Shown here: piece by piece, positions 11,852-50,718 of the stretch
Layout of the letters: every line of letters starts with the position of its first letter
How positions within the stretch are numbered: position 1 is the stretch's first letter
Origin: Anaeromyxobacter sp.
GTDB taxonomy: Bacteria; Myxococcota; Myxococcia; Myxococcales; Anaeromyxobacteraceae
NCBI GenBank assembly: GCA_031427995.1
Contig: JANPOM010000191.1
Coordinates: forward strand, 1 to 61,571
Length of the DNA: 61,571 bases
Direction of reading: 5' to 3'
Notes under the pieces: generated by a model
Told to the model about the DNA's origin: nothing
The model's input: only the letters and a program-made list of their open reading frames with translations
Database searches by the model: none
Translations under genes and position numbers: made by a program

Positions 11852-13183
11852 CTACCTGGCGGCCGCCGGCTTCGGCGGCGCAGCGGCCGCCAGCTCGTCG
11901 CGCAGCGTCCGCGCCGCCTTGAGCACGCCCCTGGGCCGGACCGCCTCGGGCAGCCCCTCGCCGTGGCGGATGGCTTCGTCGACGGCGGTCTTCGCGCCCA
12001 GGACGTCACCGGCCGCTCGCAGCGCCCGGGCCTCGACCACCAGGATGTTCACCCTTCGTGGACCCTGGGCCAGCGCGGCGGCGGCCCTGGCGGTGGCGGC
12101 GGCCTCTTTCGGCCGCCCGGCCTCGAGGTAGCCGCGAGCCAGGTAGGCCAGCGCGAAATACTCTCCGGGCAGGGCCCGGGCCGAGGCCTCCAGCGCCGGG
12201 ATGACCCGCTGGAGGTCACCCAGCGTCATGGCCGCGGTGAGCCGGGCCCCGTCGAAGGCGGAGCGGGCCAGCGGCGTGGTGGCCCGGGCCGACTCGGCCT
12301 CGATCCAGCCGAGCCAGTCGCCCGCCACCGCCCTGGCGCCGCCCTCATCCTTGCTGGCCTTGCGCGCGCCCAACAGGGCATCGTAGAGGCCGGAGCGGTC
12401 GTCGCTCGGCACGCCGGGAAACACCAGCGCGCCACCGGCGGCCGGCTCCAGCACCGCGATGGCCTCGGCGCGCGCCGCCGGCGCCTCCAGCGAGACGGCG
12501 CAGACCAGCCCAGCCGCCGCCACCCGGGCCGCCGCCGATCCGTGCGGCAGCGAGGGCAGGAACTTCCGCGCGGCCTCCGCGCAAGGGGCCGGGTCCTTCC
12601 CCAGCGAGAGCGCCTGCAGGAGCGCGTCGGCCGCCTCGGGCCGTCCCGGCCAGGCAAGACCTCCCGCCTCGAGCGCCGCGCCGTACGCCTCAGCCGCCCT
12701 GGCGTGCTCCCGGGCGGCGGCCAGCGCCGCTCCCCGCGCCATGGCGGCCCCGGCGGCGTCGGTCTTCTCCTTGCGCAGCGTCCTGGCGGCGGCGAGGAGC
12801 AACCTCTCCAGTTCCCCGGCGGTGGCCGTCCCCATCCAGCGCAGCGCCACCTGTTCGGTGGCCGGATCGATGACCAGGATGGTCGGCCAGGCCTCGATGG
12901 GGAACCGCTCCACGAAGGCGAAGTTGCCCGGCTTCTCGGTGTCGATGTCGAGCCAGGCAAACTGCCCGGCGAGCTTCACGAGGCGTGCGTCGGTGAGGAC
13001 GTTGGCCCGCATGAAGCGGCAGGTGGGTCACCAGGGCGCCCAGACCTCGACCACCAGCGGCACGTTGCGGGCCCGCGCATCGGCCAGGGCCCGGGCGTAG
13101 TCGTCCTGGATGAAGTGGAGCGTTCCGGCCGCCGGGGCCGGCGCGGAGGCCAGCATGGCGAGGGTCAGCACGAGCGAGCGCAT
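11852..13183 (-). CDS. secreted thioredoxin-fold (Thioredoxin_7-like) + TPR-like protein with in-frame TGA at the redox motif (putative UxxC selenoprotein)
   Basis: In the same frame as ORF 11852..13012, the upstream 51 codons read MRSLVLTLAMLASAPAPAAGTLHFIQDDYARALADARARNVPLVVEVWAPW. These are followed by TGA (13030..13028), then PTCRF-MRANVLTD... The total is 444 codons in frame. The TGA occupies the first Cys position of W-C-x-x-C. Confidence 0.6.
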
Positions 13184-13214: not shown

Positions 13215-13658
13215 TCAGCCCTTTCGCTTCATCGAGAGGCCGAGCGTGAAGCGGGCCACCGGTTCGCCGCCGTACTTGTCCGGCACGGTGCAGGTGACGT
13301 GGACTGGCATGGTGATGCGCTCCCCGGTCTGGTCGGCCTTCACGACGGCCGCCGCCACCTCGGCCCCCTGCTCGCAGGCGAAGTGGACGTCGCCATCGGC
13401 GCGCTTCAAGAACTGCCCCTGGACGTCGGCGAAGACGATGACCACCCTCGGGTGGCCGGCCCGGATGGCCCGGAAGGCGGGTAGGCCGCCGGCCAGGTCG
13501 GCCCCGGCGCAGAGGGCGCCTACGTACATCGAGCCGACGTGGTTCCTGGTTCGCCAGCCGAAGGGAATCTTCACGGTGCAGCCGGTCTGGTCGAGCCGGA
13601 GCACGCGGGGGCCGAGGAAGAGCAGCACCGGGATCCTCAAGCCCAGCAGCCGGATCAT
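13215..13658 (-). CDS. hot-dog fold thioesterase-like protein (DUF4442/YiiD_C-like)
   Basis: 147-aa C-terminal part of the shadow-extended ORF 13215..14870, starting at MIRLLGLRIPVLLFLGPRV. Motif GSMYVGALCAGADLAGG. Confidence 0.65.
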   Translation of the reverse strand: MIRLLGLRIPVLLFLGPRVLRLDQTGCTVKIPFGWRTRNHVGSMYVGALCAGADLAGGLPAFRAIRAGHPRVVIVFADVQGQFLKRADGDVHFACEQGAEVAAAVVKADQTGERITMPVHVTCTVPDKYGGEPVARFTLGLSMKRKG

Positions 13659-13681
13659 GGCGGTCTCCTTGAGCAGCACGT

Positions 13682-15073
13682 TCACCTCGTCTGGCCGGCT
13701 CCGCCGGTGGCGGTGTAGCGCCTCGCCATGGCGCGGAAGCCGAAGGCGGCCCCCAGCATGAGCAGGGCGAAGAAGGCGAAGTAGGCGGCGCCGGAGAGCC
13801 GGACGAACTGGACCAGGAAGGTGAGCAGGTTTCCGAGGAAGACGGTTAGGAACCAGATCGACATGATGGTCGAGCGCATCGAGCGGGGCGCCTGCGTGTA
13901 GCTGAACTCCAGCCCGGTCACCGAGACCAGCACCTCGGCGGTGGTGAGGAGCAGGTACTGGGGGAACTGCCAGAGCAGCCCGGGCGGCTGGCCGCCGTCG
14001 ATGCGCAGCTGCACCAGCGCCGCGGCCACGAAGGAGAAGACGGTGAGGAACATGCCGGCCGTCATCTTGGTGAGCGGCGCCGGCGAGACCCCGCGCCGGG
14101 CCAGCGCCGGGAAGACCACCCAGCTGAAGAACGGGATCAGCGCCATGACCAGGAAGGGGTTGAGGGCCTGCAGCTGCGCCGCGTCGAGCTCGAAGGGGCC
14201 GATGACGGTGCCGCCGATGCTGAACGGCCCGACCGTGCTGATGAGCTGCTTTCCCTGCAGCACCCAGCTCGAGCCGGTCTGGTCGAAGAGCGCCCAGAAG
14301 ACGGTGACGGCGCCGAAGACCCCCATGATGCGCAGCACCGCCCGCGCCCCCGCGACCGCCTCGGGGGGGTGGCGCTCCAGCGCGGTGTCGAGCCAGTTCT
14401 CCCCGGCGCGGTGGGTGCCGAGGCGGCGCAGCGCGTGCCAGAGCACGTCGAGGAACCCGTGCGGGTTGGGGCCGGAGGGCGGGGTGCGGACGTAGTGGCG
14501 GGTGCCGGCCCAGAAGACCCAGGTGGCGATGGCCATGAAGATGCCGGGAACCGCGAAGGCCACCGCTGGTCCGTAACGGCGCAAGAGCCAGGGGATGAGC
14601 AGCTTGGCGGTGGCCGAGCCGAGGTTGATGACCCAGTAGAACCAGCCGTAGACCCTCTGCATCATGACCTTCTGGTCGGGCCTGAACTGGTCGCCGACGA
14701 AGGCCGAAACGCAGGGCTTGATGCCGCCCGATCCGAGGGTGATGAGCGCCAGCCCGGTGATGAAGCCGGTGCGCGAATCCCAGAAGGCCAGGGTCAGGTG
14801 GCCGAGGACGTAGAAGAGCGAGATCCAGAGGATGGTCTTGTAGCGGCCCCAGTAGCGGTCGGCGATCCACCCGCCCAGCAGCGGGGTCAGGTAGTTGACC
14901 ATCATGAAGAGGTGGTAGCCCTCCTTGGCCTCGGTGTCCGGGTAGAGCAGGTACCCGGTCATGTAGACCACCAGCACCGAGCGCATCCCGTAGAAGGAGA
15001 AGCGCTCGCAGGCCTCGTTGCCCACGATGTACTTCACCTGCGGTGGATAGCGTTCGGCGCTGGCGGCGGTCAT
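13682..15073 (-). CDS. POT/PTR2-family proton-dependent oligopeptide transporter
   Basis: Signature GNEACERFSFYGMRSVLVVYM ... GGWIADRYWGRYKTI. Polytopic. Confidence 0.9.
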   Translation of the reverse strand: MTAASAERYPPQVKYIVGNEACERFSFYGMRSVLVVYMTGYLLYPDTEAKEGYHLFMMVNYLTPLLGGWIADRYWGRYKTILWISLFYVLGHLTLAFWDSRTGFITGLALITLGSGGIKPCVSAFVGDQFRPDQKVMMQRVYGWFYWVINLGSATAKLLIPWLLRRYGPAVAFAVPGIFMAIATWVFWAGTRHYVRTPPSGPNPHGFLDVLWHALRRLGTHRAGENWLDTALERHPPEAVAGARAVLRIMGVFGAVTVFWALFDQTGSSWVLQGKQLISTVGPFSIGGTVIGPFELDAAQLQALNPFLVMALIPFFSWVVFPALARRGVSPAPLTKMTAGMFLTVFSFVAAALVQLRIDGGQPPGLLWQFPQYLLLTTAEVLVSVTGLEFSYTQAPRSMRSTIMSIWFLTVFLGNLLTFLVQFVRLSGAAYFAFFALLMLGAAFGFRAMARRYTATGGAGQTR

Positions 15074-15124
15074 GGGGCTCGGAGCGAGGTGATGGCGGTC
15101 AGTCCCTGGGCGGTGGCGGCGGCG

Positions 15125-16444
15125 TCAGGCGGCGGCGGTGCGGCGGGAGGCGCGGAAGGCGAGCGTCACCAGCAGGAAGGCCACCGCGGCACCCAGCATG
15201 AGCCAGGCATAGAAGTGGTAGTAGCCGACCCCCTGCCAGCGGTTGAGCCCGGCCACCACCGCGGCCAGCAGGCTGCCGCCGGAGATGGTGAGGAACCAGA
15301 GCCCCATCACCAGGCTCTTGAGCTGGGGCGGGGCCTGCGTGTAGGCGAACTCGAGCGCGGTCACGCTCACCAGCACCTCGCCGACGCCCATGAAGACGTA
15401 CTGCGGCACCTGCCAGGCGACGTGCGGGTTGCCCCCGGCCCGGAGCTGGGCCTCGACCCAGGCGGCGGCCAGGAAGGAGAGTCCGGTCACGAACATGCCC
15501 ACCGACATCTTGCGGAGCGGCGTGACCGCCACCCCGGCGCGGACCAGTGCCGGGTAGACCAGCAGCGTGAAGACCGGGATCAGCGTCAGCACCAGCAGAG
15601 CGTTGAGCGTCTGCATCTGCCCGGCCGAGATCTGCAGGCCTCCCACCACCCGGTCGAGCTTGTCGGCCTGCAGGGTCCAGGCCGAGTCGTACTGGAAGTA
15701 GAGGGACCAGAAGACCGCCACCGGGGCGAAGATGGCCGCGATCCAGCCCAGCGACCGGATCGTGCCCATGACCCCGAGCCGCTCCGGCGCGGCCCGCCCC
15801 GCCGCCGCCGCCTCGGCCCGCGCCACCACCGCCGGCGGCAGGCGCAGGTAGCGGGTGCGTCCCGCCCAGAAGACCAGCAGCGCCAGCGCCATGGCCAGCC
15901 CGGGCACGCCGAAGGCGACGCGGGGGCCGTAGGCGTCGAAGAGCCAGGGGATGAGCAACGTCGAGGCGAAGGAGCCGAGGTTGATCATCCAGTAGTAGAG
16001 GTTGTAGACGCGCTCGACGGCGCGGTCGTCGCCGGCCGGGACCTGGTCGGCCGCGAAGGCCGAAGCGCAGGGCTTGATGCCGCCGGCGCCGAGCGCGATC
16101 AGCGTCAGGCCGACCACCAGCCCGGCTGGCGTCTCCCAGAGGGCGACGGTGGCGTGGCCGGCCACGTAGCCGAAGGAGAGCCAGAGGATGGTCCGGTAGC
16201 GCCCCCAGAGCAGGTCGGCGAGGAGCGCACCCAGCAGCGGCGTCAGGTAGACCGCGGCGTTGAAGAGGCTCTTGCCCGCGACCGCCTGGTGCTCGGCCAA
16301 GCCCAGGTGCTTCACCATGTGCAGCACCAGGATCGAGCCCATCCCGTAGAAGGAGAAGCGCTCGGCCGCCTCGTTCCAGGCCAGGTACCAGATCTGCGAC
16401 GGAAGGCGCGCTGGGCGGCCGGGCGTGCTCATGTGGACGGGCAT
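15125..16444 (-). CDS. POT/PTR2-family oligopeptide transporter (tandem paralogue)
   Basis: C-terminal 440 codons of the 995-aa artefactual ORF. Start MPVHMSTPG (or 16432). Signature WNEAAERFSFYGMGSILVLHM ... GALLADLLWGRYRTI. Confidence 0.88.
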   Translation of the reverse strand: MPVHMSTPGRPARLPSQIWYLAWNEAAERFSFYGMGSILVLHMVKHLGLAEHQAVAGKSLFNAAVYLTPLLGALLADLLWGRYRTILWLSFGYVAGHATVALWETPAGLVVGLTLIALGAGGIKPCASAFAADQVPAGDDRAVERVYNLYYWMINLGSFASTLLIPWLFDAYGPRVAFGVPGLAMALALLVFWAGRTRYLRLPPAVVARAEAAAAGRAAPERLGVMGTIRSLGWIAAIFAPVAVFWSLYFQYDSAWTLQADKLDRVVGGLQISAGQMQTLNALLVLTLIPVFTLLVYPALVRAGVAVTPLRKMSVGMFVTGLSFLAAAWVEAQLRAGGNPHVAWQVPQYVFMGVGEVLVSVTALEFAYTQAPPQLKSLVMGLWFLTISGGSLLAAVVAGLNRWQGVGYYHFYAWLMLGAAVAFLLVTLAFRASRRTAAA

Positions 16445-16543
16445 CCTGCCACACCTCGCCGCCCGGCGGCGTGAGCCCGTCCACGCCGTTGCCCCGGGGC
16501 ACCCGCCGCGGGTCCCGGCACGGACGCTGGTAGACTTCCCCGG

Positions 16544-33097: not shown

Positions 33098-33796
33098 TCA
33101 GCCACCGATGAGCCGCTCAAGCAGCTCCCTGGCCGAGGGCTGAGACCAGTCCATTTCACCGATGACGTAGGCGGCGATTCGGCCAGACTTGTCCACGATG
33201 TAGCTCTCCGGGAACTTCACGTCGTCGGGAGAACAGGCGCCTCGCCCGGTGCAGTACCAGGCCCGGACCGTCGTCCTGCCGTCGGGGTCGAGCGCCACCG
33301 TGACCTGCGGCGGGAGACGGCCGCCCTGCTCCGGGCTCCTGAAGAACTGCCTCACCAGGTCGGCCGATTCGTCGACCGAGACCGCCACCATCTTGAACTT
33401 GCCCGGATGACGCGCCGCCAGCTCCCGTCCCAGCTTCACCATGCTCGGCATCTCGGTGCGGCAGGGCGGGCACCAGGTGGCCCAGAAGTTGACGAAGACC
33501 ACCTGCCCCCGGGCCGTGGTCAGATCGAAGTGGCCGCCGTCGACGGTCGGAAGGCTGAGGGGCGGAGCCAGCGGCGCCGTCCTCGAGAGCAGCAACTGGC
33601 CGAAGACCGCCGGCTCGGCGGGCGAAGCGGCGGAAGGCTGGGCCGGCGTGGCCACCATGGGCGACATGGCGCTGGTGAGCTGCTCCACCTGGTGCGTCGC
33701 GTCCCAGGCCTTCCAGCCCGCGGCGGCGAGGAGCACCAGGAAGACGGCGCCGGCGACGAGCTGTTGCCGGGGCCATTTCGGATCGGTCTCAGCCAT
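33098..33796 (-). CDS. TlpA/ResA-family thiol:disulfide oxidoreductase (membrane-anchored)
   Basis: TM anchor VAGAVFLVLLAAAGW. Redox motif VNFWATWCPPCRTEMP. Confidence 0.85.
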   Translation of the reverse strand: MAETDPKWPRQQLVAGAVFLVLLAAAGWKAWDATHQVEQLTSAMSPMVATPAQPSAASPAEPAVFGQLLLSRTAPLAPPLSLPTVDGGHFDLTTARGQVVFVNFWATWCPPCRTEMPSMVKLGRELAARHPGKFKMVAVSVDESADLVRQFFRSPEQGGRLPPQVTVALDPDGRTTVRAWYCTGRGACSPDDVKFPESYIVDKSGRIAAYVIGEMDWSQPSARELLERLIGG

Positions 33797-34996: not shown

Positions 34997-35908
34997 TCAG
35001 GCCTCGGCGGCGCCCTCGCCGACCACCAGGTAGAGGTTCTGGCCGAGCCGCCGGTGACCGCGCTCGCCCACCAGCAGGTCGAGCGCCAGCGAGGCCACGT
35101 CGTCGGCCAGCGCCTCCAGCAGCGGCCCGCGCTCCACGTAGAGCAGCTTGAGCCAGGTCTGGCAGGCGCCGCAGCTCTCGGCCTGGGCCGGCCCGGCGAC
35201 GCCCTCCACCGAGAGGTAGGAGAGGTCGGCCCCGGAGCGGCAGAGCACGCACTGGACCCTGGTGTGGTGCCACGAGGTGGCGCAGAGGCCGCAGACCAGG
35301 TAGCGCAGCTTGTCGTCCCCCAGCACCATGCCGACGGTCGGCGAGGCGCCGCAGGCCGGGCAGCCCTCCTCGACGCGGGCCACCGCCGCCACCGGGAGGC
35401 ACGCGGCCAGGCCGGTGTAGGCCACCTGGAGGGCGGCCCCGGCGAACGGGGCCAGCGGCACGTCGAGCGGGCCCGGCTGGCCTGCCAGCAGCCGCTCGGC
35501 CAGGCTGTCGAGGTCGAACTCGGAGAGCCTCCCCAGTCGATCCAGCGCGGCGCGAGTCGGGGGTGGAACCGCCAGACCGGAGAGCTCCTCGAGGAGCAGG
35601 CGCAGCGCCTCGCGCCAGACCGGCGGCGGGGCCTTGGCCGAGTCGAGGGGTGGTTCGCCTGCCACCGGTGGCGGCATGGCCGGGAGGCCGAGCCGCTCGG
35701 CCACCGCCCGCTGCGCCGCCGCCAGCCGGGCCAGCATCGACAGGTAGTCGCCGGCCGCATGGTTCGGCGCCAGGTCCTCGAAACGCGCGGCGCGGCGGGC
35801 GAAGACCTGCTGGGCCCCAGGGTGGGGGCGCAGGTAGGGGACCTCACCCAGCTCGCCGCCACCGGTCAGGAACGCGGTTGGCGCCCCTCCAGGCCCGGCT
35901 CCAGTCAC
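34997..35908 (-). CDS. fdhE: formate dehydrogenase accessory protein FdhE
   Basis: Four CxxC pairs (CPACG, CGLCAT, CVLCRS, CGACQT). GTG start overlaps the fdnI stop (GTGA). 303 aa. Confidence 0.85.
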   Translation of the reverse strand: MTGAGPGGAPTAFLTGGGELGEVPYLRPHPGAQQVFARRAARFEDLAPNHAAGDYLSMLARLAAAQRAVAERLGLPAMPPPVAGEPPLDSAKAPPPVWREALRLLLEELSGLAVPPPTRAALDRLGRLSEFDLDSLAERLLAGQPGPLDVPLAPFAGAALQVAYTGLAACLPVAAVARVEEGCPACGASPTVGMVLGDDKLRYLVCGLCATSWHHTRVQCVLCRSGADLSYLSVEGVAGPAQAESCGACQTWLKLLYVERGPLLEALADDVASLALDLLVGERGHRRLGQNLYLVVGEGAAEA

Positions 35909-36543
35909 CGGCTGTCCTTGCCGGTCGCGTCGCGCTCCCAGGCCGGATGGTGGAACCTGGCCCAGGCGCGGGTGACGGTGCCGCGGATCATCGCGTCGAT
36001 GGAGCCCTTGGTCCAGATGGCCGCGTAGACGTGGATGCCGATCCCCACGAACATGATGAAGGCGCAGACCGAGTGGATGAGCCCGGCGGCGCGGCGGGCC
36101 CCGGTGGAGAAATACGGGGCGAACCAGGGCTGCCAGAGCAAGACCCCGGTCACCGCGAGCACGGCGATGATCGGGACCATCGACCAGAACATCAGCTTCT
36201 GCCCGGCGTTGTACTTGTGGGTCTCGCCGATGTCGGGGTGCTCCTTGCGCATGTACGCCGACATGTGCGTGACCCACTTCGAGTCGTTGGGGCGCCAGCG
36301 GTTGTCGCCCACCAGCAGCGCCGCGTACGGGTAGAAGAGGATCACCAGCGCCGCCCCCGCCAGCGGGTGGAGGAAGCGCATCAGCGAGCCGCCGCCGAGG
36401 ACCTGGGAGAGCCAGAAGAAGAACGGCGAGAAGAGGGCGAGCCCCGAGAGGAAGAGAAAGGTGAAGACGATGGACACCGCCCAGTGGGTGACGCGGGAGC
36501 CGTTGGAGTGGCGCTGGATCAGCTCCTTGCCGTTGGCGCTCAT
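35905..36543 (-). CDS. fdnI: formate dehydrogenase cytochrome b556 (gamma) subunit
   Basis: 212 aa. IQRHSNGSRVTHWAVSIVFTFLFLSGLALFSP. Four TM helices with conserved His. Confidence 0.85.
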   Translation of the reverse strand: MSANGKELIQRHSNGSRVTHWAVSIVFTFLFLSGLALFSPFFFWLSQVLGGGSLMRFLHPLAGAALVILFYPYAALLVGDNRWRPNDSKWVTHMSAYMRKEHPDIGETHKYNAGQKLMFWSMVPIIAVLAVTGVLLWQPWFAPYFSTGARRAAGLIHSVCAFIMFVGIGIHVYAAIWTKGSIDAMIRGTVTRAWARFHHPAWERDATGKDSR

Positions 36544-37415
36544 GGCTTCGCCTCCTGGTCACTTTCGGGCGGGACTTCGAGCGGACCGTGGCGCATGTAG
36601 TGGAGGATCCCGGCCGCCAGCACCGCGAACATGGTGGCGACGCCGGCGGCGCGGGCCACTCCGCTGCGCCAGGCGTTGAGCAGCGGGCCCACCTTCGGAT
36701 TGGCCGGCAGGCCGTAGGCCTCGGGCCGGTCACCGTGCGGCAGCACGAAGACCACGTGGGTGCCCCCCACGCCCTTGGGGTCGTAGACCGCCGCCTTGGC
36801 GAAGCCGCGCTCGACCAGGTCGGCCAGCCGGTGCTCGGCCTGGAAGAGCATCGCCTCCTTGGAGCCGAAGCCGATGGCCTGGGTCGGGCAGGCCTTGACG
36901 CAGGCCGGCTCCAGCCCGACCGCGATCCGGTCGGAGCAGAGGGTGCACTTGTAGACCTTGGAGTCCTTCCCGGAGAGGCGGGGGACGTGGAACGGGCAGC
37001 CGGCGATGCAGTAGCCGCAGCCGATGCACTGGTCTTGCTGGAAGTCGACGATGCCGTTGGAGTACTGCACGATGGCGCCCGGAGCCGGGCAGGCCGTGAG
37101 GCAGCCCGGATCCTGGCAGTGCATGCAGCCGTCCTTGAGGATCAGCCACTGCAGGCGGCCGTCGATGACCTGCTCGTTGAAGCGCCTCAAGGTCCAGGAC
37201 TGGTCGGAGAGGTCCGGGGGGTTGGTGTAGAAGCCCTCCTGGACCCCCACCTCGTCGCGCAGGTCGTTCCACTCCATGCAGGCCGACTGGCAGGCCTTGC
37301 AGCCGATGCAGCGCGAAATGTCGATGAGCTTGGCCACCTCCAGGGTGGTGCGCGCCTGGGGCGGCGTCGAGGTCTTGGCCGACTGGTTGACGACGTCGAG
37401 TGACATGAGTGCCAT
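36540..37415 (-). CDS. fdnH: formate dehydrogenase iron-sulfur (beta) subunit
   Basis: Four ferredoxin-type Cys clusters (CIGCKACQSAC, CMHCQDPGC, CIGCGYCIAGC, CTLCSDR) plus a C-terminal TM anchor. Confidence 0.92.
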   Translation of the reverse strand: MALMSLDVVNQSAKTSTPPQARTTLEVAKLIDISRCIGCKACQSACMEWNDLRDEVGVQEGFYTNPPDLSDQSWTLRRFNEQVIDGRLQWLILKDGCMHCQDPGCLTACPAPGAIVQYSNGIVDFQQDQCIGCGYCIAGCPFHVPRLSGKDSKVYKCTLCSDRIAVGLEPACVKACPTQAIGFGSKEAMLFQAEHRLADLVERGFAKAAVYDPKGVGGTHVVFVLPHGDRPEAYGLPANPKVGPLLNAWRSGVARAAGVATMFAVLAAGILHYMRHGPLEVPPESDQEAKP

Positions 37416-37425
37416 GGCGCGCTCC

Positions 37426-40400
37426 TCAGGCCTTCAGGACGTCGACCAGGAACGCCTTGAACTCGGGCGTCTCGATGTTGGCGTCGCCGATGAACGGCGT
37501 CAGGGTGTTGGTCAGGTGGCCTGGCTTGGTGAGCCCCTCGAATCCCCAGTGGATGGGCAGGCCGACGGTGTGGACCTGCTGCCCCTCGATCTTCAGGGCA
37601 TGGATGCGCTTGGTGACCAGGGCCTTGACCTTGATGACTCCCCGCTTCGACTTGACGACCACCTGGTCACCGTTCTTGATGCCCCGCAGGCTGGCCAGTT
37701 CCTCGCCGATCTCCACGAAGGCCTCTGGTTGCAGCACCGCGGCGATGCGGGTGTGCTTGGTCCAGAAGTGGAAGTGCTCGGTGAGCCGGTAGGTGGTGGC
37801 CACGAAGGGGAACTCCTTGGCCAGGCCCAGCCGCTCCTTGTCTCCCTTGTAGAGCCGCACCGCGGGGTTGGAGAGGGTCTTCCCTCCGCCCTTGGGCGAG
37901 AACGGGTTCGAGTACAGCGGCGTCTCGAAGGGCTCGTAGTGCTCGGGGAACGGCCCCTCGGCCATGCCGCCGAGCGCGAAGAGCCGGCCCACCCCCTCGT
38001 TGGTCATGATGAAGGGCGACATGCCGTCTTCTGGCGGCGAGTCGACCTTGAAGTCGGGGACGTCGGGGCCGACCCACTTCTTGCCGTTCCAGGTGATGTA
38101 CTTGCGCTTCGGGTCCCAGGCCTTGCCGGCCGGATCGGCCGAGGCGCGGTTGTAGAGGATGCGGCGGTTGGCCGGCCAGGACCAGGCCCACCCTGGGGTG
38201 TTGCCGAGGCCGGTCGGATCGGAGGCGTCGCGCCTCGCCATCTGGTTGCCGTTCTGCGTCCAGCTGCCGGTGTAGATCCAGCAGCCGGCCGAGGTGGTGC
38301 CGTCGGCCTGCAGGTGGGCGAAGGTGGCGAGCTGTTCGCCCTCCTTGGCCAGGGTCTTGGTCTTGTCCTTGGGATCCGGGATGTCGGCCAGCGCCTTGCC
38401 ATTGACCTCGCGGGCCACCTCGTCTGGCGACGGCGCGAGCGGCTTGGCGTAGGGCCAGGGCAGCTTGACGATGGGGTCGGGGAAGGTGCCGCCCTCCTTC
38501 TTGTAGAGCTCGCGCAGGGCCAGGAAGATCCCGGCCATGACGTCGATGTCGGGGCGGGCCTCGCCGGGCGGCTCGGCCGCCTTCCAGTGCCACTGCAGCT
38601 GCCGGCCGCTGTTGGTGAGCGAGCCGTCCTCCTCGGCGAAGCAGGTGGCGGGGAGCCGGAAGACCTCGGTCTGGATGGCCTTGCTGTCTACGTCGTTGAA
38701 CTCGCCGTGGTTCTTCCAGAAGGTCGAGGTCTCGGTGACCAGCGGATCGATCACCACCAGGAACTTGAGCTTGGAGAGGGCGGGGATGAGCTTGCCCTTG
38801 TCCGGCACGGAAGCCAGCGGGTTGAAACCCTGGCAGAAGTAGCCGTTGACCTTCCCCCGGTACATCAGCTCGAAGGTGGCGAGGATGTCGTAGGTCTTGT
38901 CGTTCTTGGGCAGCCAGTCGAAGTGGAAGTCGTTCTCCTTGGTCGCCTCGGCCCCGAACCAGGCCTTGAGCAGCGAGACGAAGAACTTCGGGTAGTTCTG
39001 GAGGTAGTTCATCTGCCCGGGGCGCACCGCCTTGGGCGTCCGCTTCTCCAGGTAGGTCTTGAGGTCGGGCTCCTTCTCGGTGGGCAGGCCGAGGTAGCCG
39101 GGGAGCAGGTGGCTCATGACGCCGAGGTCGGTGAGCCCCTGGATGTTGGAGTGGCCGCGCAGCGCGTTTACGCCGCCGCCGGGCAGCCCCATGTTGCCTA
39201 GCAGCATCTGGATGATGGCGATGGCGCGGATGTTCTGGGAGCCGACGGTGTGCTGGGTCCAGCCGAGCGCATAGAGGCTGGTCATCACCTTGTTGGTCGC
39301 CGAGGTGGTGCCGATGAGCTTGGCGATGTCGAGGAACTCGGCGGCCGGTACGCCGGTGACCCGCTCCACCAGCTCCGGCGTGTAGCGGGCGTAGTGGCGC
39401 TTCATGGCCTGGTAGACGCAGCGCGGGTCCGCGAGCGTCGGGTCGATCTTGGCCTGGCCGTCCTTGTCGAGCTGGTACTTCCAGGTGGCCTTGTCGTAGC
39501 TGCGCTTGGCCTCGTCGTAGCCGGTGAAGAGCCCCTCGTCGAAGCCGTACCCCTCGTCGATGAGGAAGGCGGCGTTGGTGTAGCTGCGGACGTACTCCTT
39601 CTGGATGAGGTCGTTCTCCAGCAGGTAGCGGATCACGCCGCCGAGGAAGGCGATGTCGGTGCCGGGCCGGAGCTGGGCGAACTTGTCGGCCACCGCCGCG
39701 GTCCGCGTGAAGCGCGGGTCGACCACGATGAGCCGGGCCTTGTTCTTGATCTTGGCCTCGATCACCCACTTGAAGCCGCAGGGGTGGGCCTCGGCCGGGT
39801 TGCCTCCCATCACCAGCACCACGTCGGCGTTCTTGATGTCCACCCAGTGGTTCGTCATCGCGCCACGACCGAAGGAGGGGGCCAGACCGGCCACCGTGGG
39901 GCCGTGTCAAACCCTGGCTTGGTTGTCCAGCGCGGTCATCCCCATGGCGCGGATGACCTTGTTGGTGATGTAGCCCGACTCGTTGGAGGAGGCCGAGGCC
40001 GCCAGGAAGGCGACGCTGGTCCAGCGGTTGACGGTGACGTCGCCGCTCTTCTGCAGGAAATTCTTGTCGCGGTCGTCCTTCATGAGCCGGGCGATGCGCC
40101 CCAGCGCGAAGTCCCAGCTCACCCGCTTCCACTCGCTCTCGCCCGGCCCGCGGTACTCGGGGTACTTGAGCCGGTTGGGGCTCTTGACGAAGTCGAGCAG
40201 CGAGGCGCCCTTGGGACAGAGCGTGCCGCGGTTGACCGGGTGATCGGGATCGCCCTCGACGTGGATGATCTCGGTGCGGGCGTTCTTCGACTTGTCGCCA
40301 AGCCCGTGGAGGATGACGCCGCAGCCGACCGAGCAGTAGGGGCAGGTGTTGCGCGTCTCGGAGGTGCGGGCCAGCTTGAACTGCCTGACCTCCGCGAGCG

Positions 40401-40491
40401 CCCGGACCGGGGAGAAGCCGAGGGCGGCCAGGCTGCTGCCGGCCAAGCCTCCTGCGGCGACCTTCATGAACTGCCTGCGGGTGACGGCCAT
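37426..40491 (-). CDS. fdnG: formate dehydrogenase-N-type catalytic (alpha) subunit, selenocysteine-containing
   Basis: ORFs 39907..40626 and 37426..39894 are one frame joined by TGA at 39909..39907: ...[36 protein letters not shown]. Tat signal MAVTRRQFMKVAAG (ATG at 40491). 1021 codons. Confidence 0.92.
39865..39906 (-). promoter_or_regulatory. SECIS element of fdnG (bacterial type)
   Basis: Immediately 3' of the UGA is CACGGCCCCACGGUGGCCGGUCUGGCC..., with apical hairpin GGCC-GGUCU-GGCC (39880..39892 on the plus strand). This resembles the GGUC-loop SECIS of enterobacterial fdh genes. Confidence 0.55.
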
Positions 40492-40704
40492 GGGCAGGAC
40501 CTCCAAGGCGACAGGATGCCGCATGCTACGCAGGCCCGAGTCAAGTCCGATAGGGGGTGTCACCGACAATTTCGTGAGTCCGCTCGCGTCAAGCTGACGA
40601 CGCGGCGCGGCAGCGGACAGGACCACTCCGCCCGGCTAAGCTGCCGGCCGTCCCGCTCGAGTCACCCGACCGGCTGCACGCCCATCCCATCCCGGGAGCA
40701 TCCC

Positions 40705-45024: not shown

Positions 45025-45163
45025 CATCCGAGCGCGCTCCGCCCGCCGAGCACGGTCGTCCCACCCCCCTCTCGCCCCACCCCAGCCCCGGTCTCCTCCC
45101 GAAAACGACCGCTGACGCCGCCCCGCTTCCGCTTCCACGCCCGGCATGTCTAGACTTCGACGC

Positions 45164-45910
45164 ATGCCGATGGTGGCCCTCTTCGTCCCCTGCTACGTCG
45201 ACCAGTTCTACCCGCAGGTGGCCGAGGCGACCTTGCGCCTCCTCGAGCGCCACGGCTGCACCGTGGAGTTCCCCGAGGCCCAGACCTGCTGCGGCCAGCC
45301 CATGTCCAACTCCGGCGAGGCGGCGGCGGCGGCCCCGCTCTGTGCCCACTTCCTCGACACCTTCGAGCGTTACCAGTACGTGGTGGCGCCGAGCGGGAGC
45401 TGCGTGGGCATGGTGCGCAACCAATTCCCCGGCCTGGTCCCGAACCACCCGGCGCTCGGGAAGGTGCGAGCCGCCACCTACGAGCTCTGCGAGTTCCTCC
45501 ACGACGTCCTCGGGGTTCGCCAGGTGGCCGGGCGCTTCCCCCGCAAGGTCGGCCTGCACCGCAGCTGCCACGCCCAGCGCGAGCTGCGCCTCGCCAGCGG
45601 CAGCGAGCGCCAGGTGGCCCGGTTCGACAAGGTGAAGACCCTGCTCGGCTCGCTGCAGGGGATCACGCTGGTGGAGCCGGCCCGCACCGACGAGTGCTGT
45701 GGCTTCGGCGGCACCTTCGCGGTCGCCGAGGAGGCGGTCTCCTGCCTGATGGGGCGCGACCGGCTCGACCAGCACGCCGCCGCCGGCGCCGAGGTGATCA
45801 CCGGCGTCGACATGAGCTGCCTCATGCACCTGGAGGGGCTGGCCCGCCGCGAGGGGCGCCCGGTCAAGATCCTCCACGCCGCCGAGGTGCTGCTCGGGGA
45901 GGCGAGCTGA
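45164..45910 (+). CDS. lutA: L-lactate utilisation protein LutA ((Fe-S)-binding CCG-domain oxidoreductase)
   Basis: MPMVALFVPCYVDQFYPQVAEATLRLLERHGCTVEFPEAQTCCGQP. Second CCG motif ECCGFGGTF. An alternative start is at 45146. Confidence 0.85.
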   Translation: MPMVALFVPCYVDQFYPQVAEATLRLLERHGCTVEFPEAQTCCGQPMSNSGEAAAAAPLCAHFLDTFERYQYVVAPSGSCVGMVRNQFPGLVPNHPALGKVRAATYELCEFLHDVLGVRQVAGRFPRKVGLHRSCHAQRELRLASGSERQVARFDKVKTLLGSLQGITLVEPARTDECCGFGGTFAVAEEAVSCLMGRDRLDQHAAAGAEVITGVDMSCLMHLEGLARREGRPVKILHAAEVLLGEAS

Positions 45911-45911
45911 G

Positions 45912-47297
45912 ATGGCGCACCTCACCACGCTCAGGCACCCCGAGGCGGCCGCCCGCTTCGTCGCCGACACGCCGCGCGCCCACTGGCACGACCAGGCGCT
46001 CTGGTTCATGCGCGTCAAGCGCGACCGGGCCGCCGCGCAGGTGCCGGAGTGGGAGCGGCTCCGCGAGCTGGCCCAGGCCATCAAGGCCCACGCCCTCGCC
46101 AACCTCCCGGCCCTGCTCGAGCAGTTCGAGCGCCACGCCACCGCGGCCGGCGCCACCGTCCACTGGGCGCGGGACGCCGCCGAGCACAACCGCATCGTCC
46201 ACCAGCTGCTCTTCGCCAAGGGCGTGACCCGGCTCGTCAAGTCGAAGTCGATGCTCACCGAGGAGTGCGGCCTCAACCCCTACCTGGAGACCCGCGGCAT
46301 CGAGGTGGTCGACACCGACCTCGGCGAGCGCATCGTCCAGTTCCGCGACGAGCCGCCCAGCCACATCGTGCTCCCGGCCATCCACCTCAAGAAGGAGGAG
46401 ATCGGCGAGCTCTTCCACCAGAAGCTCGGCACCGACAAGGGCGCCTCCGACCCGAAGTACCTGACCGAGGCGGCCCGCGGCCACCTGCGGCAGAAGTTCC
46501 TCCAGGCCCAGGCCGGCCTCACCGGGGTCAACTTCGCCCTGGCCGACACCGGCGCGGTGGTGGTCTGCACCAACGAGGGGAACGCCGACATGGGCACCTC
46601 GCTGCCGCCCCTCCATATCGCCTGCATGGGGCTTGAGAAGATCGTGCCGCGCGCCGAGGACCTCGGGGTCTTCCTGCGGCTGCTGGCCCGCTCCGCCACC
46701 GGCCAGCCGGTCACCACCTACTCGACCCACTTCCAGGGGCCGCGCCACGGCTCCGAGTTGCACATTGTCATCCTCGACAACGGCCGCAGCGCCCTGCTGG
46801 GCCGCGACCCGTACCGGCGCGCCCTCTCCTGCATCCGCTGCGGCGCCTGCATGAACACCTGCCCGGTCTTCCGCCTCTCCGGCGGCCACAGCTACGGCGT
46901 CACCGTCCCCGGCCCCATCGGCTCGGTGCTGGCGCCGGCCATCGACGCCACGGCCCACGCCGCCCTCCCCTTCGCCTCGACGCTCTGCGGCTCCTGCACC
47001 GACGTCTGCCCGGTCCGCATCGACCTGCACCACCAGCTGCTGGCCTGGCGGCGCGACCTCGTCGCCGCCGGCCACGGGAGCGCGGGCAAGCGGCTGGCGC
47101 TCCACTTCACCGCCTGGCTCTTCGCCTCGCCGGCCCGCTACGCGCTGGCCGGGAGGCTGGCTCGCTTCGCCCTGCGGGTGCTCCCGGCCTGGCTGATTCG
47201 GCGGCTGGCCGGACCGTGGGGACGGCAGCGGGAGCTGCCGGTGGCTCCGCTGGAGAGCTTCCGCGATCGCTACCGGAGGACCCATGGCCGCTCGTGA
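45912..47297 (+). CDS. lutB: L-lactate utilisation protein LutB (LUD + 4Fe-4S ferredoxin domains)
   Basis: 461 aa. CIRCGACMNTCPV and CGSCTDVCPV clusters. LUD domain ...GVNFALADTGAVVVCTNEGN. Confidence 0.9.
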   Translation: MAHLTTLRHPEAAARFVADTPRAHWHDQALWFMRVKRDRAAAQVPEWERLRELAQAIKAHALANLPALLEQFERHATAAGATVHWARDAAEHNRIVHQLLFAKGVTRLVKSKSMLTEECGLNPYLETRGIEVVDTDLGERIVQFRDEPPSHIVLPAIHLKKEEIGELFHQKLGTDKGASDPKYLTEAARGHLRQKFLQAQAGLTGVNFALADTGAVVVCTNEGNADMGTSLPPLHIACMGLEKIVPRAEDLGVFLRLLARSATGQPVTTYSTHFQGPRHGSELHIVILDNGRSALLGRDPYRRALSCIRCGACMNTCPVFRLSGGHSYGVTVPGPIGSVLAPAIDATAHAALPFASTLCGSCTDVCPVRIDLHHQLLAWRRDLVAAGHGSAGKRLALHFTAWLFASPARYALAGRLARFALRVLPAWLIRRLAGPWGRQRELPVAPLESFRDRYRRTHGRS

Positions 47298-47877
47298 GGA
47301 GATCCTGGCGGCACTCCGCCGCCACGCCCAGCCCGGCGCGCCGCTTCCGGTCATCGACGGGGTAGGCGCCAGCTTCCCGGACCTCCCGGCCCGCCTCGCC
47401 GAGGCGGTGGTGGCGGTGGGAGGCACCCTGGTCCGGGCCCCCGATCTGGCCGCGGCCGACGCGGCGCTCCGCGCGCTCCCCATCCACCGCGATGCCAAGC
47501 GGATCGCCTCCCTGGTCCCGGGAGTCGGGGCGGCAAACGTCTACCCGTCCACCGTGAAGGACCCGCACCAGCTCGAGGGGCTCGACCTCTCGGTGCTGCC
47601 CGGCTCGTTCGCGGTGGCCGAGAACGGCGCCGTCTGGATCGAGGGGGCACGGCTTCCCCACCACGCCCTGGTGGTGATCCCGGAGCACGTGGCGCTGGTG
47701 GTCTCGGCCGCCGACATCGTCCCGGATCTCCACGCCGCCTACGCCCGGCTCGATCTGGCCGGCCGGCCGCGCTGGGGGCTCTTCATGGCCGGCCCCTCCA
47801 AGACCGCCGACATCGAGCAGTCGCTGGTGATCGGCGCCCACGGGGCCAGGAGCCTGGTGGTGCTGCTGGTCGGATAG
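47284..47877 (+). CDS. lutC: L-lactate utilisation protein LutC (LUD domain)
   Basis: 197 aa. ...GSFAVAENGAVWI...GPSKTADIEQSLVIGAHG. Overlaps the lutB end. Confidence 0.85.
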   Translation: MAAREEILAALRRHAQPGAPLPVIDGVGASFPDLPARLAEAVVAVGGTLVRAPDLAAADAALRALPIHRDAKRIASLVPGVGAANVYPSTVKDPHQLEGLDLSVLPGSFAVAENGAVWIEGARLPHHALVVIPEHVALVVSAADIVPDLHAAYARLDLAGRPRWGLFMAGPSKTADIEQSLVIGAHGARSLVVLLVG

Positions 47878-47886
47878 CGGAGTCCC

Positions 47887-50718
<2,832 letters not shown>

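Follow-up and report, generated by a model that had tools for sequence, protein, structure and literature searches.

A probable exported selenoprotein with a thioredoxin-TPR architecture in Anaeromyxobacter, and a candidate selenocysteine insertion sequence located unusually far downstream of its UGA codon

Background

Several bacterial proteins with a thioredoxin fold carry selenocysteine (Sec, U) in place of the N-terminal cysteine of a CxxC motif. These UxxC selenoproteins include thioredoxin (Trx), thiol:disulfide interchange protein, and DsbA-like and peroxiredoxin (Prx)-like proteins (Zhang et al. 2006, PMC1794560; PMC13188914), and Anaeromyxobacter dehalogenans has been credited with 'thioredoxin (2)' and 'DsbA-like' selenoproteins (PMC1794560). 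Here we describe a gene on the minus strand of an Anaeromyxobacter sp. contig (JANPOM010000191.1 of assembly GCA_031427995.1; the 61,571 nucleotides (nt) analysed are referred to below as the window) which contains an in-frame TGA in its active-site motif and very probably encodes a member of this group. Its likeness to the described UxxC selenoproteins extends to the replacement of the N-terminal Cys of CxxC by Sec, the existence of Cys orthologues, the truncated annotation and the occurrence in relatives of Anaeromyxobacter. It differs from them in that the encoded protein has a solenoid of about 300 residues resembling tetratricopeptide repeats (TPR) as well as a putative signal peptide, and in that the candidate selenocysteine insertion sequence (SECIS) of the gene lies outside the 16-37 nt rule.

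The inventory of prokaryotic selenoproteins published in 2026 lists no thioredoxin-TPR family by name, and the terms 'TPR' and 'tetratricopeptide' have 0 occurrences in it (PMC13188914); such a family could be contained in its generic entries 'Trx' or 'thiol:disulfide interchange'. In the literature library at our disposal, which is incomplete so that absence from it does not prove novelty, we found no description of a thioredoxin-TPR selenoprotein, nor of a bipartite or distal bacterial SECIS.

The combination of an N-terminal thioredoxin domain with a C-terminal TPR domain is known from the chaperedoxin CnoX/YbbN (PDB 3qou; PMC6282202), and some homologues of the present protein are named 'thioredoxin-like negative regulator of GroEL' by JGI. 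CnoX is cytoplasmic, whereas the present protein has a signal peptide by prediction, and some of its homologues a lipobox; moreover, its TPR part is about twice as long as that of CnoX/YbbN, and its active site is a U/C-x-x-C motif following WAPW. No YbbN-specific family match was found in Pfam or NCBIfam, and the protein is not assigned to the CnoX/YbbN family.

Weak NCBIfam matches over the active-site region were obtained with DsbE, DsbD and TsoB, all far below the cut-offs (16.9 bits against 359 for DsbE and 26.4 bits against 330 for DsbD), which do not place the protein in either of the latter families. CcmG/DsbE and the DsbD gamma-domain, unlike the present protein, come from proteins without a TPR domain, and neither the compared loci nor the scanned window revealed a neighbouring gene for cytochrome c maturation or for DsbD/CcdA. 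The motif W-x-x-W-[C/U]-P-T-C-R of the family, which would here read W-U-P-T-C-R, resembles WCPTC, the active site of CcmG.

Bacterial SECIS elements follow a consensus with a loop of the form N1-G-[G|U]-N-N2, an upper stem of 4-16 bp, a folding energy of -7.5 kcal/mol or lower and 16-37 nt between UGA and loop (PMC13188914). The distance between UGA and SECIS is generally given as 'about 20 nt' (PMC4605307), and the minimal SECIS hairpin of E. coli sits at an 11-nt offset (PMC8659212). A canonical SECIS is present in 87.4% of the entries of BSepDB, about 13% being said to lack one (PMC13326102). The distal of the two hairpins described below (H2) resembles canonical elements (E. coli fdhF type, bSECISearch, SECIS_3) in its loop of 3-5 nt starting with G-U, its 8-bp stem and its location within the coding sequence, but differs from them in the distance between UGA and loop, which is 65 nt (canonical 16-37 nt; 19 nt in the fdnG gene of the same window), and in the presence of a 45-nt hairpin (H1) between the UGA and H2.

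Results and discussion

One reading frame with a single in-frame TGA

Translation of the minus strand from the ATG at 13183 to the stop at 11852 gives 444 codons with one internal stop, the TGA at 13030..13028 (residue 52). It stands in the context WAPW-[TGA]-PTC, or VVEVWAPW*PTCRFM when the stop is written as an asterisk, and the complete translation begins MRSLVLTLAMLASAPAPAAGTLHFIQDDYARALADARARNVPLVVEVWAPW*PTCRFM. In the list of open reading frames (ORFs) this frame is split into 13028..13183 (51 residues) and 11852..13012 (386 residues, starting at an internal ATG). An earlier reading of the sequence by eye, referred to here as the original prediction, had pointed to a single TGA within a 444-codon frame, to an ORF of 386 residues starting at the internal Met at 13012, and to 51 sense codons upstream of the stop; translation and ORF list agree with it on each of these points.

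With a Cys placed at the stop, three Pfam families match across the TGA, over approximately residues 26-129: Thioredoxin_7 (PF13899; 40.8 bits, cut-off 27), Thioredoxin (PF00085; 29.7 bits, cut-off 23.5) and Thioredoxin_2 (PF13098; 28.9 bits, cut-off 27). An NCBIfam scan of the protein, in which the curated selenoprotein 'exception' models were included, gave no match at cut-off. These matches and the recurrence of the TGA column in homologues (below) go well beyond what chance would produce. The 51-residue and 386-residue ORFs very probably constitute one gene for a thioredoxin-TPR selenoprotein, putatively exported, with Sec in its active site.

Homologues have either TGA or a Cys codon at the same position

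A search of a collection of 5.8 billion proteins returned 91 relatives. Eighteen of these are of full length (431-478 residues), with a signal-like N-terminus, a DDYxxALAxAR lead-in and the motif WAPW-C-(P/H)-x-C, and have Cys at the TGA column. About 70 of the 91 have only 372-423 residues, and the aligned ones among them have the internal Met (MRANVLTD...) as their first residue. The reason is that gene calling treated this TGA as a stop in them as well: the DNA of the fetched loci of such short homologues carries the conserved upstream codons. In every assembly looked up, gene callers had annotated a small ORF of 51, 69, 74 or 84 residues directly before a 'main' ORF of 377-400 residues. 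The original prediction had placed the stop at the first Cys of W-[C]-x-x-C, and the full-length homologues indeed align a Cys there (WAPWC[P/H]xC) and share the N-terminal lead-in. It had also named homologues that start at the internal Met and lack the thioredoxin lead-in as evidence that would speak against it; the conservation of the upstream codons in the DNA shows the opposite. Its warning that an annotation truncated at the TGA loses both the active site and the export signal applies to all the assemblies that were checked.

For analysis at the DNA level, 66 loci from species-representative genomes, 80 metagenome loci and 9 loci found by exact protein look-up were collected; the search for the genome loci used an alignment that was tighter than the broad homologue alignment. 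Among distinct 84-nt regions starting at the codon in question, 108 have TGA (below called Sec forms) and 16 have TGC or TGT, and four further Cys forms with slightly different motifs bring the latter to 20 in all. According to the titles of the genome records, the Sec forms belong to Anaeromyxobacter/Anaeromyxobacteraceae, Candidatus Eisenbacteria, Krumholzibacteriia, one Gemmatimonadota metagenome-assembled genome (MAG) and unclassified MAGs, and among the Cys forms are Cystobacter, Pyxidicoccus, Kofleriaceae and some Anaeromyxobacteraceae. The codons upstream of the TGA preserve the encoded amino acids but vary at synonymous sites (1.16-1.41 bits of entropy at the invariant Ala codons -20, -16 and -3), which is the signature of translated sequence.

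Evidence from fdnG that the organism decodes UGA as Sec

The fdnG gene in the window has a TGA in the context NQARV*HGPTVAG, and Rfam identifies a SECIS_3 element on it with a score of 76.2 bits, the gathering threshold being 63. This indicates that the organism decodes UGA as Sec. The ARV-U-HGP site of fdnG had been cited in the original prediction on the same grounds, and the SECIS_3 match now accompanies it.

A conserved hairpin that tracks the TGA

When the 84 nt from the UGA onwards are folded, almost every Sec form yields a 10-nt spacer, hairpin H1, a linker of 0-2 nt and hairpin H2, and this two-hairpin fold is the minimum-free-energy structure in 103 of the 108. H2 spans the codons for A-G-(R/Q)-F-(V/A)-W-L in the family. 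Its GUU loop is present in all 108 Sec forms and its 8-bp stem is perfect in 103 of them, 99.4% of the stem cells being paired in an alignment of 90 distinct sequences. Where H2 does vary, the pairing is kept: pairs 66:74 and 64:76 change from G-U to A-U or G-C, pair 63:77 from C-G to U-G, and pair 68:72 from G-C to A-U (CGG/UUC versus CAG/UUU).

The codons under H2 are constrained at synonymous sites. In the 50 full-length Sec forms, the codons for Ala +20, Arg +22 and Val +24 have a synonymous entropy of 0, compared with 0.8-1.9 bits at other conserved Ala, Arg and Val columns, and the Gly codon under H2 is only GGG or GGA in Sec forms. An intact H2 occurs in 103 of the 108 Sec forms but in just one of the 20 Cys forms (locus L045, with TGT), an association with TGA that gives p = 1.7e-8 in a Fisher test on a subset of the sequences, with kinship ignored. 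The hairpin is not explained by the protein sequence and tracks the TGA, because several Cys forms encode the identical peptide (AGRFVWL or AGRFAWL) with other codons. In L071 a GGC codon breaks the stem, and in L011, L052, L089 and L112 a CGC or CGU codon removes the G of the loop.

Most sequences give H2 an energy of about -12.6 to -16 kcal/mol, and loop pattern, stem length and energy all agree with the consensus model (PMC13188914). Spacing alone does not: the loop lies 65 nt along the strand from the UGA, around double the maximum that is usual in bacteria. A scan with the SECIS criteria found a candidate at 16-37 nt in three of the 108 Sec forms and at 64-65 nt in 106. The apex of H2, G-GUU-C or A-GUU-U, resembles the G-GUC-U apex on a GGCC stem of the fdnG SECIS, which the same SelB must recognise. 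An Rfam scan of 12880-13080 at E-values up to 10 gave no SECIS family, the matches being meaningless ones to long non-coding RNAs. We propose with fairly high confidence that H2 is the SelB-binding element, and it is probably required for Sec decoding.

The original prediction had looked for a stable stem-loop within about 10-40 nt of the UGA. A stable and conserved RNA structure does follow the UGA, but the conserved SECIS-like loop is 65 nt away. The short hairpin GCCGC-UUCAU-GCGG(G)C, which had been singled out by eye, is not conserved as such, has no G in its loop and forms part of the 5' arm of a larger hairpin; it was rejected as the SECIS.

A second hairpin between the UGA and H2

H1 starts after a spacer of 10 nt, close to the 11-nt offset of the minimal E. 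coli hairpin. If the first 10 nt after the UGA are withheld from folding, as if they were inside the ribosome, columns 14-84 (counted from the UGA) fold in all 108 Sec forms into one hairpin joining 14-17 to 54-58, followed by H2, as the minimum-free-energy structure. Counted through the H1 junction, the H2 loop lies 20-23 nt from the UGA in 107 of 108 sequences; the distance in fdnG is 19 nt. Native H1 exceeds in stability the synonymous recodings generated with the codon usage of the gene concerned (mean z -2.33; -2.44 for the whole element), z being negative in all 52 Sec forms tested, with means of -0.2 to -0.4 in six Cys forms.

The arms of H1 change between clades, with pairs such as GCUUCAUG:CGUGAAGC, CCUUCAUG:CGUGAAGG, GCUCG-A-UGAGGG:CCCUCGCGAGC, GCUCC-A-UGAAGG:CCUUCGGGAGC and UGCCGC:GCGGCA. 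The apical helix, in which a C-G to G-C exchange is seen at 30:43, is 92% paired and the outer helix 73%, compared with 33-51% in slid controls. The apical loops (UUCACC, CUCACC, UCAC, UCCC and others) lack conservation and do not start with G. All 108 Sec forms are free of insertions and deletions in the stretch that leads from the UGA to H2; in two Cys forms from Myxococcales (P0089 and P0090), an insertion of eight residues, ERLPDGRT, falls exactly in the interval separating the active site from the H2 region (columns 138-145 of the broad homologue alignment).

A single consensus structure of H1 across clades was tried and rejected, since it reached a pairing of only 71-73%; this is low because bulge position and outer register differ between clades. 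A covariance model of the region did not shift the registers either, as 100 of 100 matches were aligned without gaps. The support for H1 therefore comes mainly from the per-sequence folds and the synonymous-recoding test.

L045 (TGT, position 1156) is the only Cys form in which both hairpins are fully intact, and it is otherwise like the Sec forms of the Eisenbacteria type. Its TGT reflects either a very recent change from Sec to Cys or a base-call error in a MAG (TGA to TGT).

Proposed mechanism and alternative explanations

We propose that recoding of the UGA would depend on RNA inside the coding sequence, with H2 as the SECIS apex bound by SelB. With the UGA in the A site, H1 would stand folded at the mRNA entrance and, by looping out 45 nt of the coding sequence, would leave about 20 nt between the UGA and the loop of H2, a normal bacterial distance. 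As a whole, this explanation of one Sec-encoding gene with H2 as SECIS and H1 as adaptor appears to us likely to be the best one. For H1 taken by itself, the role of a spacing adaptor that loops out 45 nt is the best mechanism we can offer, with a chance close to even, and the existence of a class of bipartite SECIS elements, in which a variable spacer hairpin brings a distal conserved SelB hairpin effectively to about 20 nt from the UGA, is put forward tentatively, at slightly under even chances.

Several observations weigh against parts of this proposal. No tRNA-Sec, selA, selB, selC or selD was found in the 61.6-kb window, of which 20 ORFs were scanned for sel genes, and the synteny of the loci compared revealed no conserved redox partner and nothing redox-related in common. 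Because the sequences share ancestry, counts and p-values suggest more independence than there is. The SECIS scan accepted perfect stems only, without bulges, and is thus stricter than bSECISearch. Covariation of H1 in a fixed register is moderate, as the pairing of its outer helix illustrates, and because the register differs between clades, much of the support for H1 derives from energy-based folding of a G+C-rich sequence. Finally, three Cys forms without H2, L052 (Cystobacter fuscus), L071 and L074, keep a stable hairpin like H1, with z = -2.4 in L052; these hairpins may be relics of a Sec ancestor, or H1 may be imposed in part by protein sequence or composition.

That the protein is no selenoprotein at all, its TGA being a real stop or being read as another amino acid, would fit the annotation of two ORFs by gene callers and the lack of sel genes in the window, but we regard it as very improbable. 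The TGA occupies one column in 108 distinct sequences from what are, by label, several phyla, and the codons on either side of it are under purifying selection; a true stop would cut the thioredoxin domain through its active site; Cys fills the column in homologues; the RNA element co-varies with TGA versus TGY; and fdnG in the same window uses UGA with a SECIS. A pseudogene, a sequencing error and two separate genes are ruled out by this conservation. The suggestion in the original prediction of a probable UxxC selenoprotein is thus supported by the Cys column of the homologues, by the conservation of the TGA and by the conserved RNA structure after it.

The other alternatives accept a genuine selenoprotein and divide the roles of the hairpins differently. 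The chief one, which we consider unlikely, holds that H2 is a SelB site acting unaided at 65 nt, that H1 is incidental structure in a G+C-rich coding sequence and that the SelB of these lineages tolerates the spacing. The constraint on H2 and its association with the TGA are equally expected under this explanation, the moderate covariation of H1 favours it, and the strict spacing rule, which tells against it, has been documented for E. coli only (PMC8659212), a further point against our proposal. Against it count the findings that z for H1 is negative throughout the Sec forms and near zero on average in Cys forms, that the arms of H1 change between clades with their pairing kept, that the stretch from UGA to H2 is free of insertions and deletions in the Sec forms, and that the path through the H1 junction matches the distance in fdnG. 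It is less likely still that H1 itself is the SECIS, with H2 as an auxiliary or unrelated element such as a pause site or a stabiliser, an arrangement we consider improbable. H1 does start 10 nt after the UGA, its apical loop falls at 27-36 nt, within the range of 16-37 nt, and it is more stable than its synonymous recodings, but its loops are of the UUCACC, CUCACC, UCAC or UCCC kind, hairpins fitting the criteria at 16-37 nt were found in only three of 108 sequences, and H1 persists in some Cys forms whereas H2 tracks the TGA and shows the strongest synonymous constraint. The adaptor role for H1, with H2 as the SelB site, is the reading that we retain, at the strengths given above.

Protein architecture and likely function

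The protein consists of a signal peptide, by prediction, a thioredoxin fold with the motif W-U-P-T-C, in which Sec would be the nucleophile if the TGA is so read, and a TPR-like solenoid of about 300 residues. The N-termini of the homologues are all hydrophobic and several have a lipobox-like L-x-x-C, which points to export. An AlphaFold2 model of the homologue P0002 (a Cys form, 73% identical; alignment of 35 sequences), with a predicted local distance difference test (pLDDT) score of 95.2 and a predicted template modelling (pTM) score of 0.90, has an N-terminal hydrophobic helix corresponding to the putative signal peptide, the thioredoxin fold and then about 18 helices (residues 143-431). 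The active-site Cys is located between the strand 43-48 and the helix 53-62. P100 is invariant within W-P-T of the homologues and is presumably the cis-Pro of the thioredoxin loop. By its domain scores, its CxxC-type motif at the start of a helix and this Pro loop, the protein qualifies as a thioredoxin-fold thiol-disulfide oxidoreductase.

Foldseek comparison of the P0002 model with the PDB yielded TPR superhelices (designed CTPR proteins and LGN), YbbN/CnoX and a Thioredox_DsbH protein. The YbbN/CnoX structure 3qou was the third-best match (E 3.5e-5), with a low template modelling (TM) score of 0.20-0.30. Sequence searches of the PDB match the thioredoxin part only. The TPR-like solenoid most likely holds a substrate or partner, and by analogy of fold and motif the protein is probably an exported (periplasmic) thiol-disulfide reductase or isomerase, a Sec-dependent analogue of the chaperedoxins. 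The architecture, described as unusual in the original prediction, is fairly so called; thioredoxin with TPR as such is known from the cytoplasmic CnoX/YbbN, and the 2026 inventory names no such selenoprotein family.

Genomic context

Loci of Anaeromyxobacteraceae share an arrangement of one or more PTR2 transporter genes, a DUF4442 gene, the selenoprotein gene, a convergent RlmL gene, and GGDEF, OmpA and two-component system genes. In the window, the upstream part of this arrangement occupies 13215-16502 on the minus strand and consists, as also in L067 and L070, of one or two PTR2/POT peptide transporters followed by DUF4442 (thioesterase-like). A link between peptide uptake and the thioredoxin-TPR protein is possible on the basis of this synteny. 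The locus of a more distant homologue of 400 residues (L068) has a response-regulator/LpxC gene, the family gene and a PatA_N gene. In L075 (1-1407), the Cys-form gene adjoins a DSBA-family gene and a 1-Cys peroxiredoxin gene, both of families that have been reported as selenoproteins in Anaeromyxobacter dehalogenans.

Elsewhere in the window, at 33098-33796 (minus strand) and about 20 kb from the selenoprotein gene, lies the gene for a TlpA/ResA-like redoxin that is membrane-anchored; its active site, WATWCPPC, has an ordinary Cys and its frame no TGA. A cluster at 45146-50718 (plus strand), resembling those for lactate utilisation and comprising CCG-domain, LUD/4Fe-4S and 943-residue flavin adenine dinucleotide (FAD)-oxidase/iron-sulphur (Fe-S) fusion proteins, appears to be unrelated. 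The features discussed are listed in Table 1.

Table 1. Features of the candidate selenoprotein gene and of the formate dehydrogenase-N operon in the 61,571-nt window of contig JANPOM010000191.1; columns are counted from the UGA codon
Feature	Position	Strand	Basis or remarks
Complete predicted selenoprotein gene, 443 residues + stop	11852..13183	-	Translation; Pfam matches across the TGA; full-length Cys homologues with the same architecture
Putative Sec-type signal peptide, MRSLVLTLAMLASAPAPAAG	13124..13183	-	Read from sequence; lost in the truncated annotation
TGA very probably read as Sec (residue 52), first position of UxxC	13028..13030	-	108 TGA versus 20 TGC/TGT homologues
Spacer between UGA and H1, 10 nt	13018..13027 (columns 4-13)	-	Per-sequence folds
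Hairpin H1, 45 nt, long irregular stem-loop, arms differing by clade	12973..13017 (columns 14-58)	-	Proposed distance adaptor
Hairpin H2, GCCGGGCAGUUUGCCUGGC, 8-bp stem and GUU loop, codons A-G-Q-F-A-W-L	12952..12970 (columns 61-79)	-	Proposed SelB-binding SECIS apex
fdnG, ORFs split by the Sec TGA	39907-40626 + 37426-39894	-	Twin-arginine translocation (Tat) signal TRRQFMK; SECIS_3 at 39854-39912 (-)
Formate dehydrogenase-N operon	35905-40626	-	fdnG, then 4Fe-4S subunit 36540-37415 and cytochrome b subunit 35905-36543

Conclusion

What is new in this locus is an ordinary kind of selenoprotein, as it appears, in an unlisted architecture, together with a candidate recoding element that departs from the spacing rule reproducibly and in a way open to testing. 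The family, present in at least 108 distinct sequences of soil and sediment bacteria, has been split by gene callers wherever examined, with loss of the export signal and the active site, and its annotation would be put right by a family model that includes a Sec exception.

The family also offers a natural and well-sampled test of the distance rule for Sec insertion in bacteria, in which the 20 Cys variants serve as controls. If H1 is an adaptor, SECIS search tools capped at 37 nt would miss such genes, and engineered selenoproteins could escape the constraint that a SECIS places on the residues right after Sec. If the bipartite SECIS is real, Sec insertion in bacteria would not be bound to the rule of 16-37 nt, and part of the approximately 13% of BSepDB entries without a canonical SECIS might be explained likewise (PMC13326102). 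For the selenoproteome, the family would add an exported thioredoxin-TPR architecture, which suggests a reductase of the periplasm that holds its substrate and benefits from having a selenolate as nucleophile.

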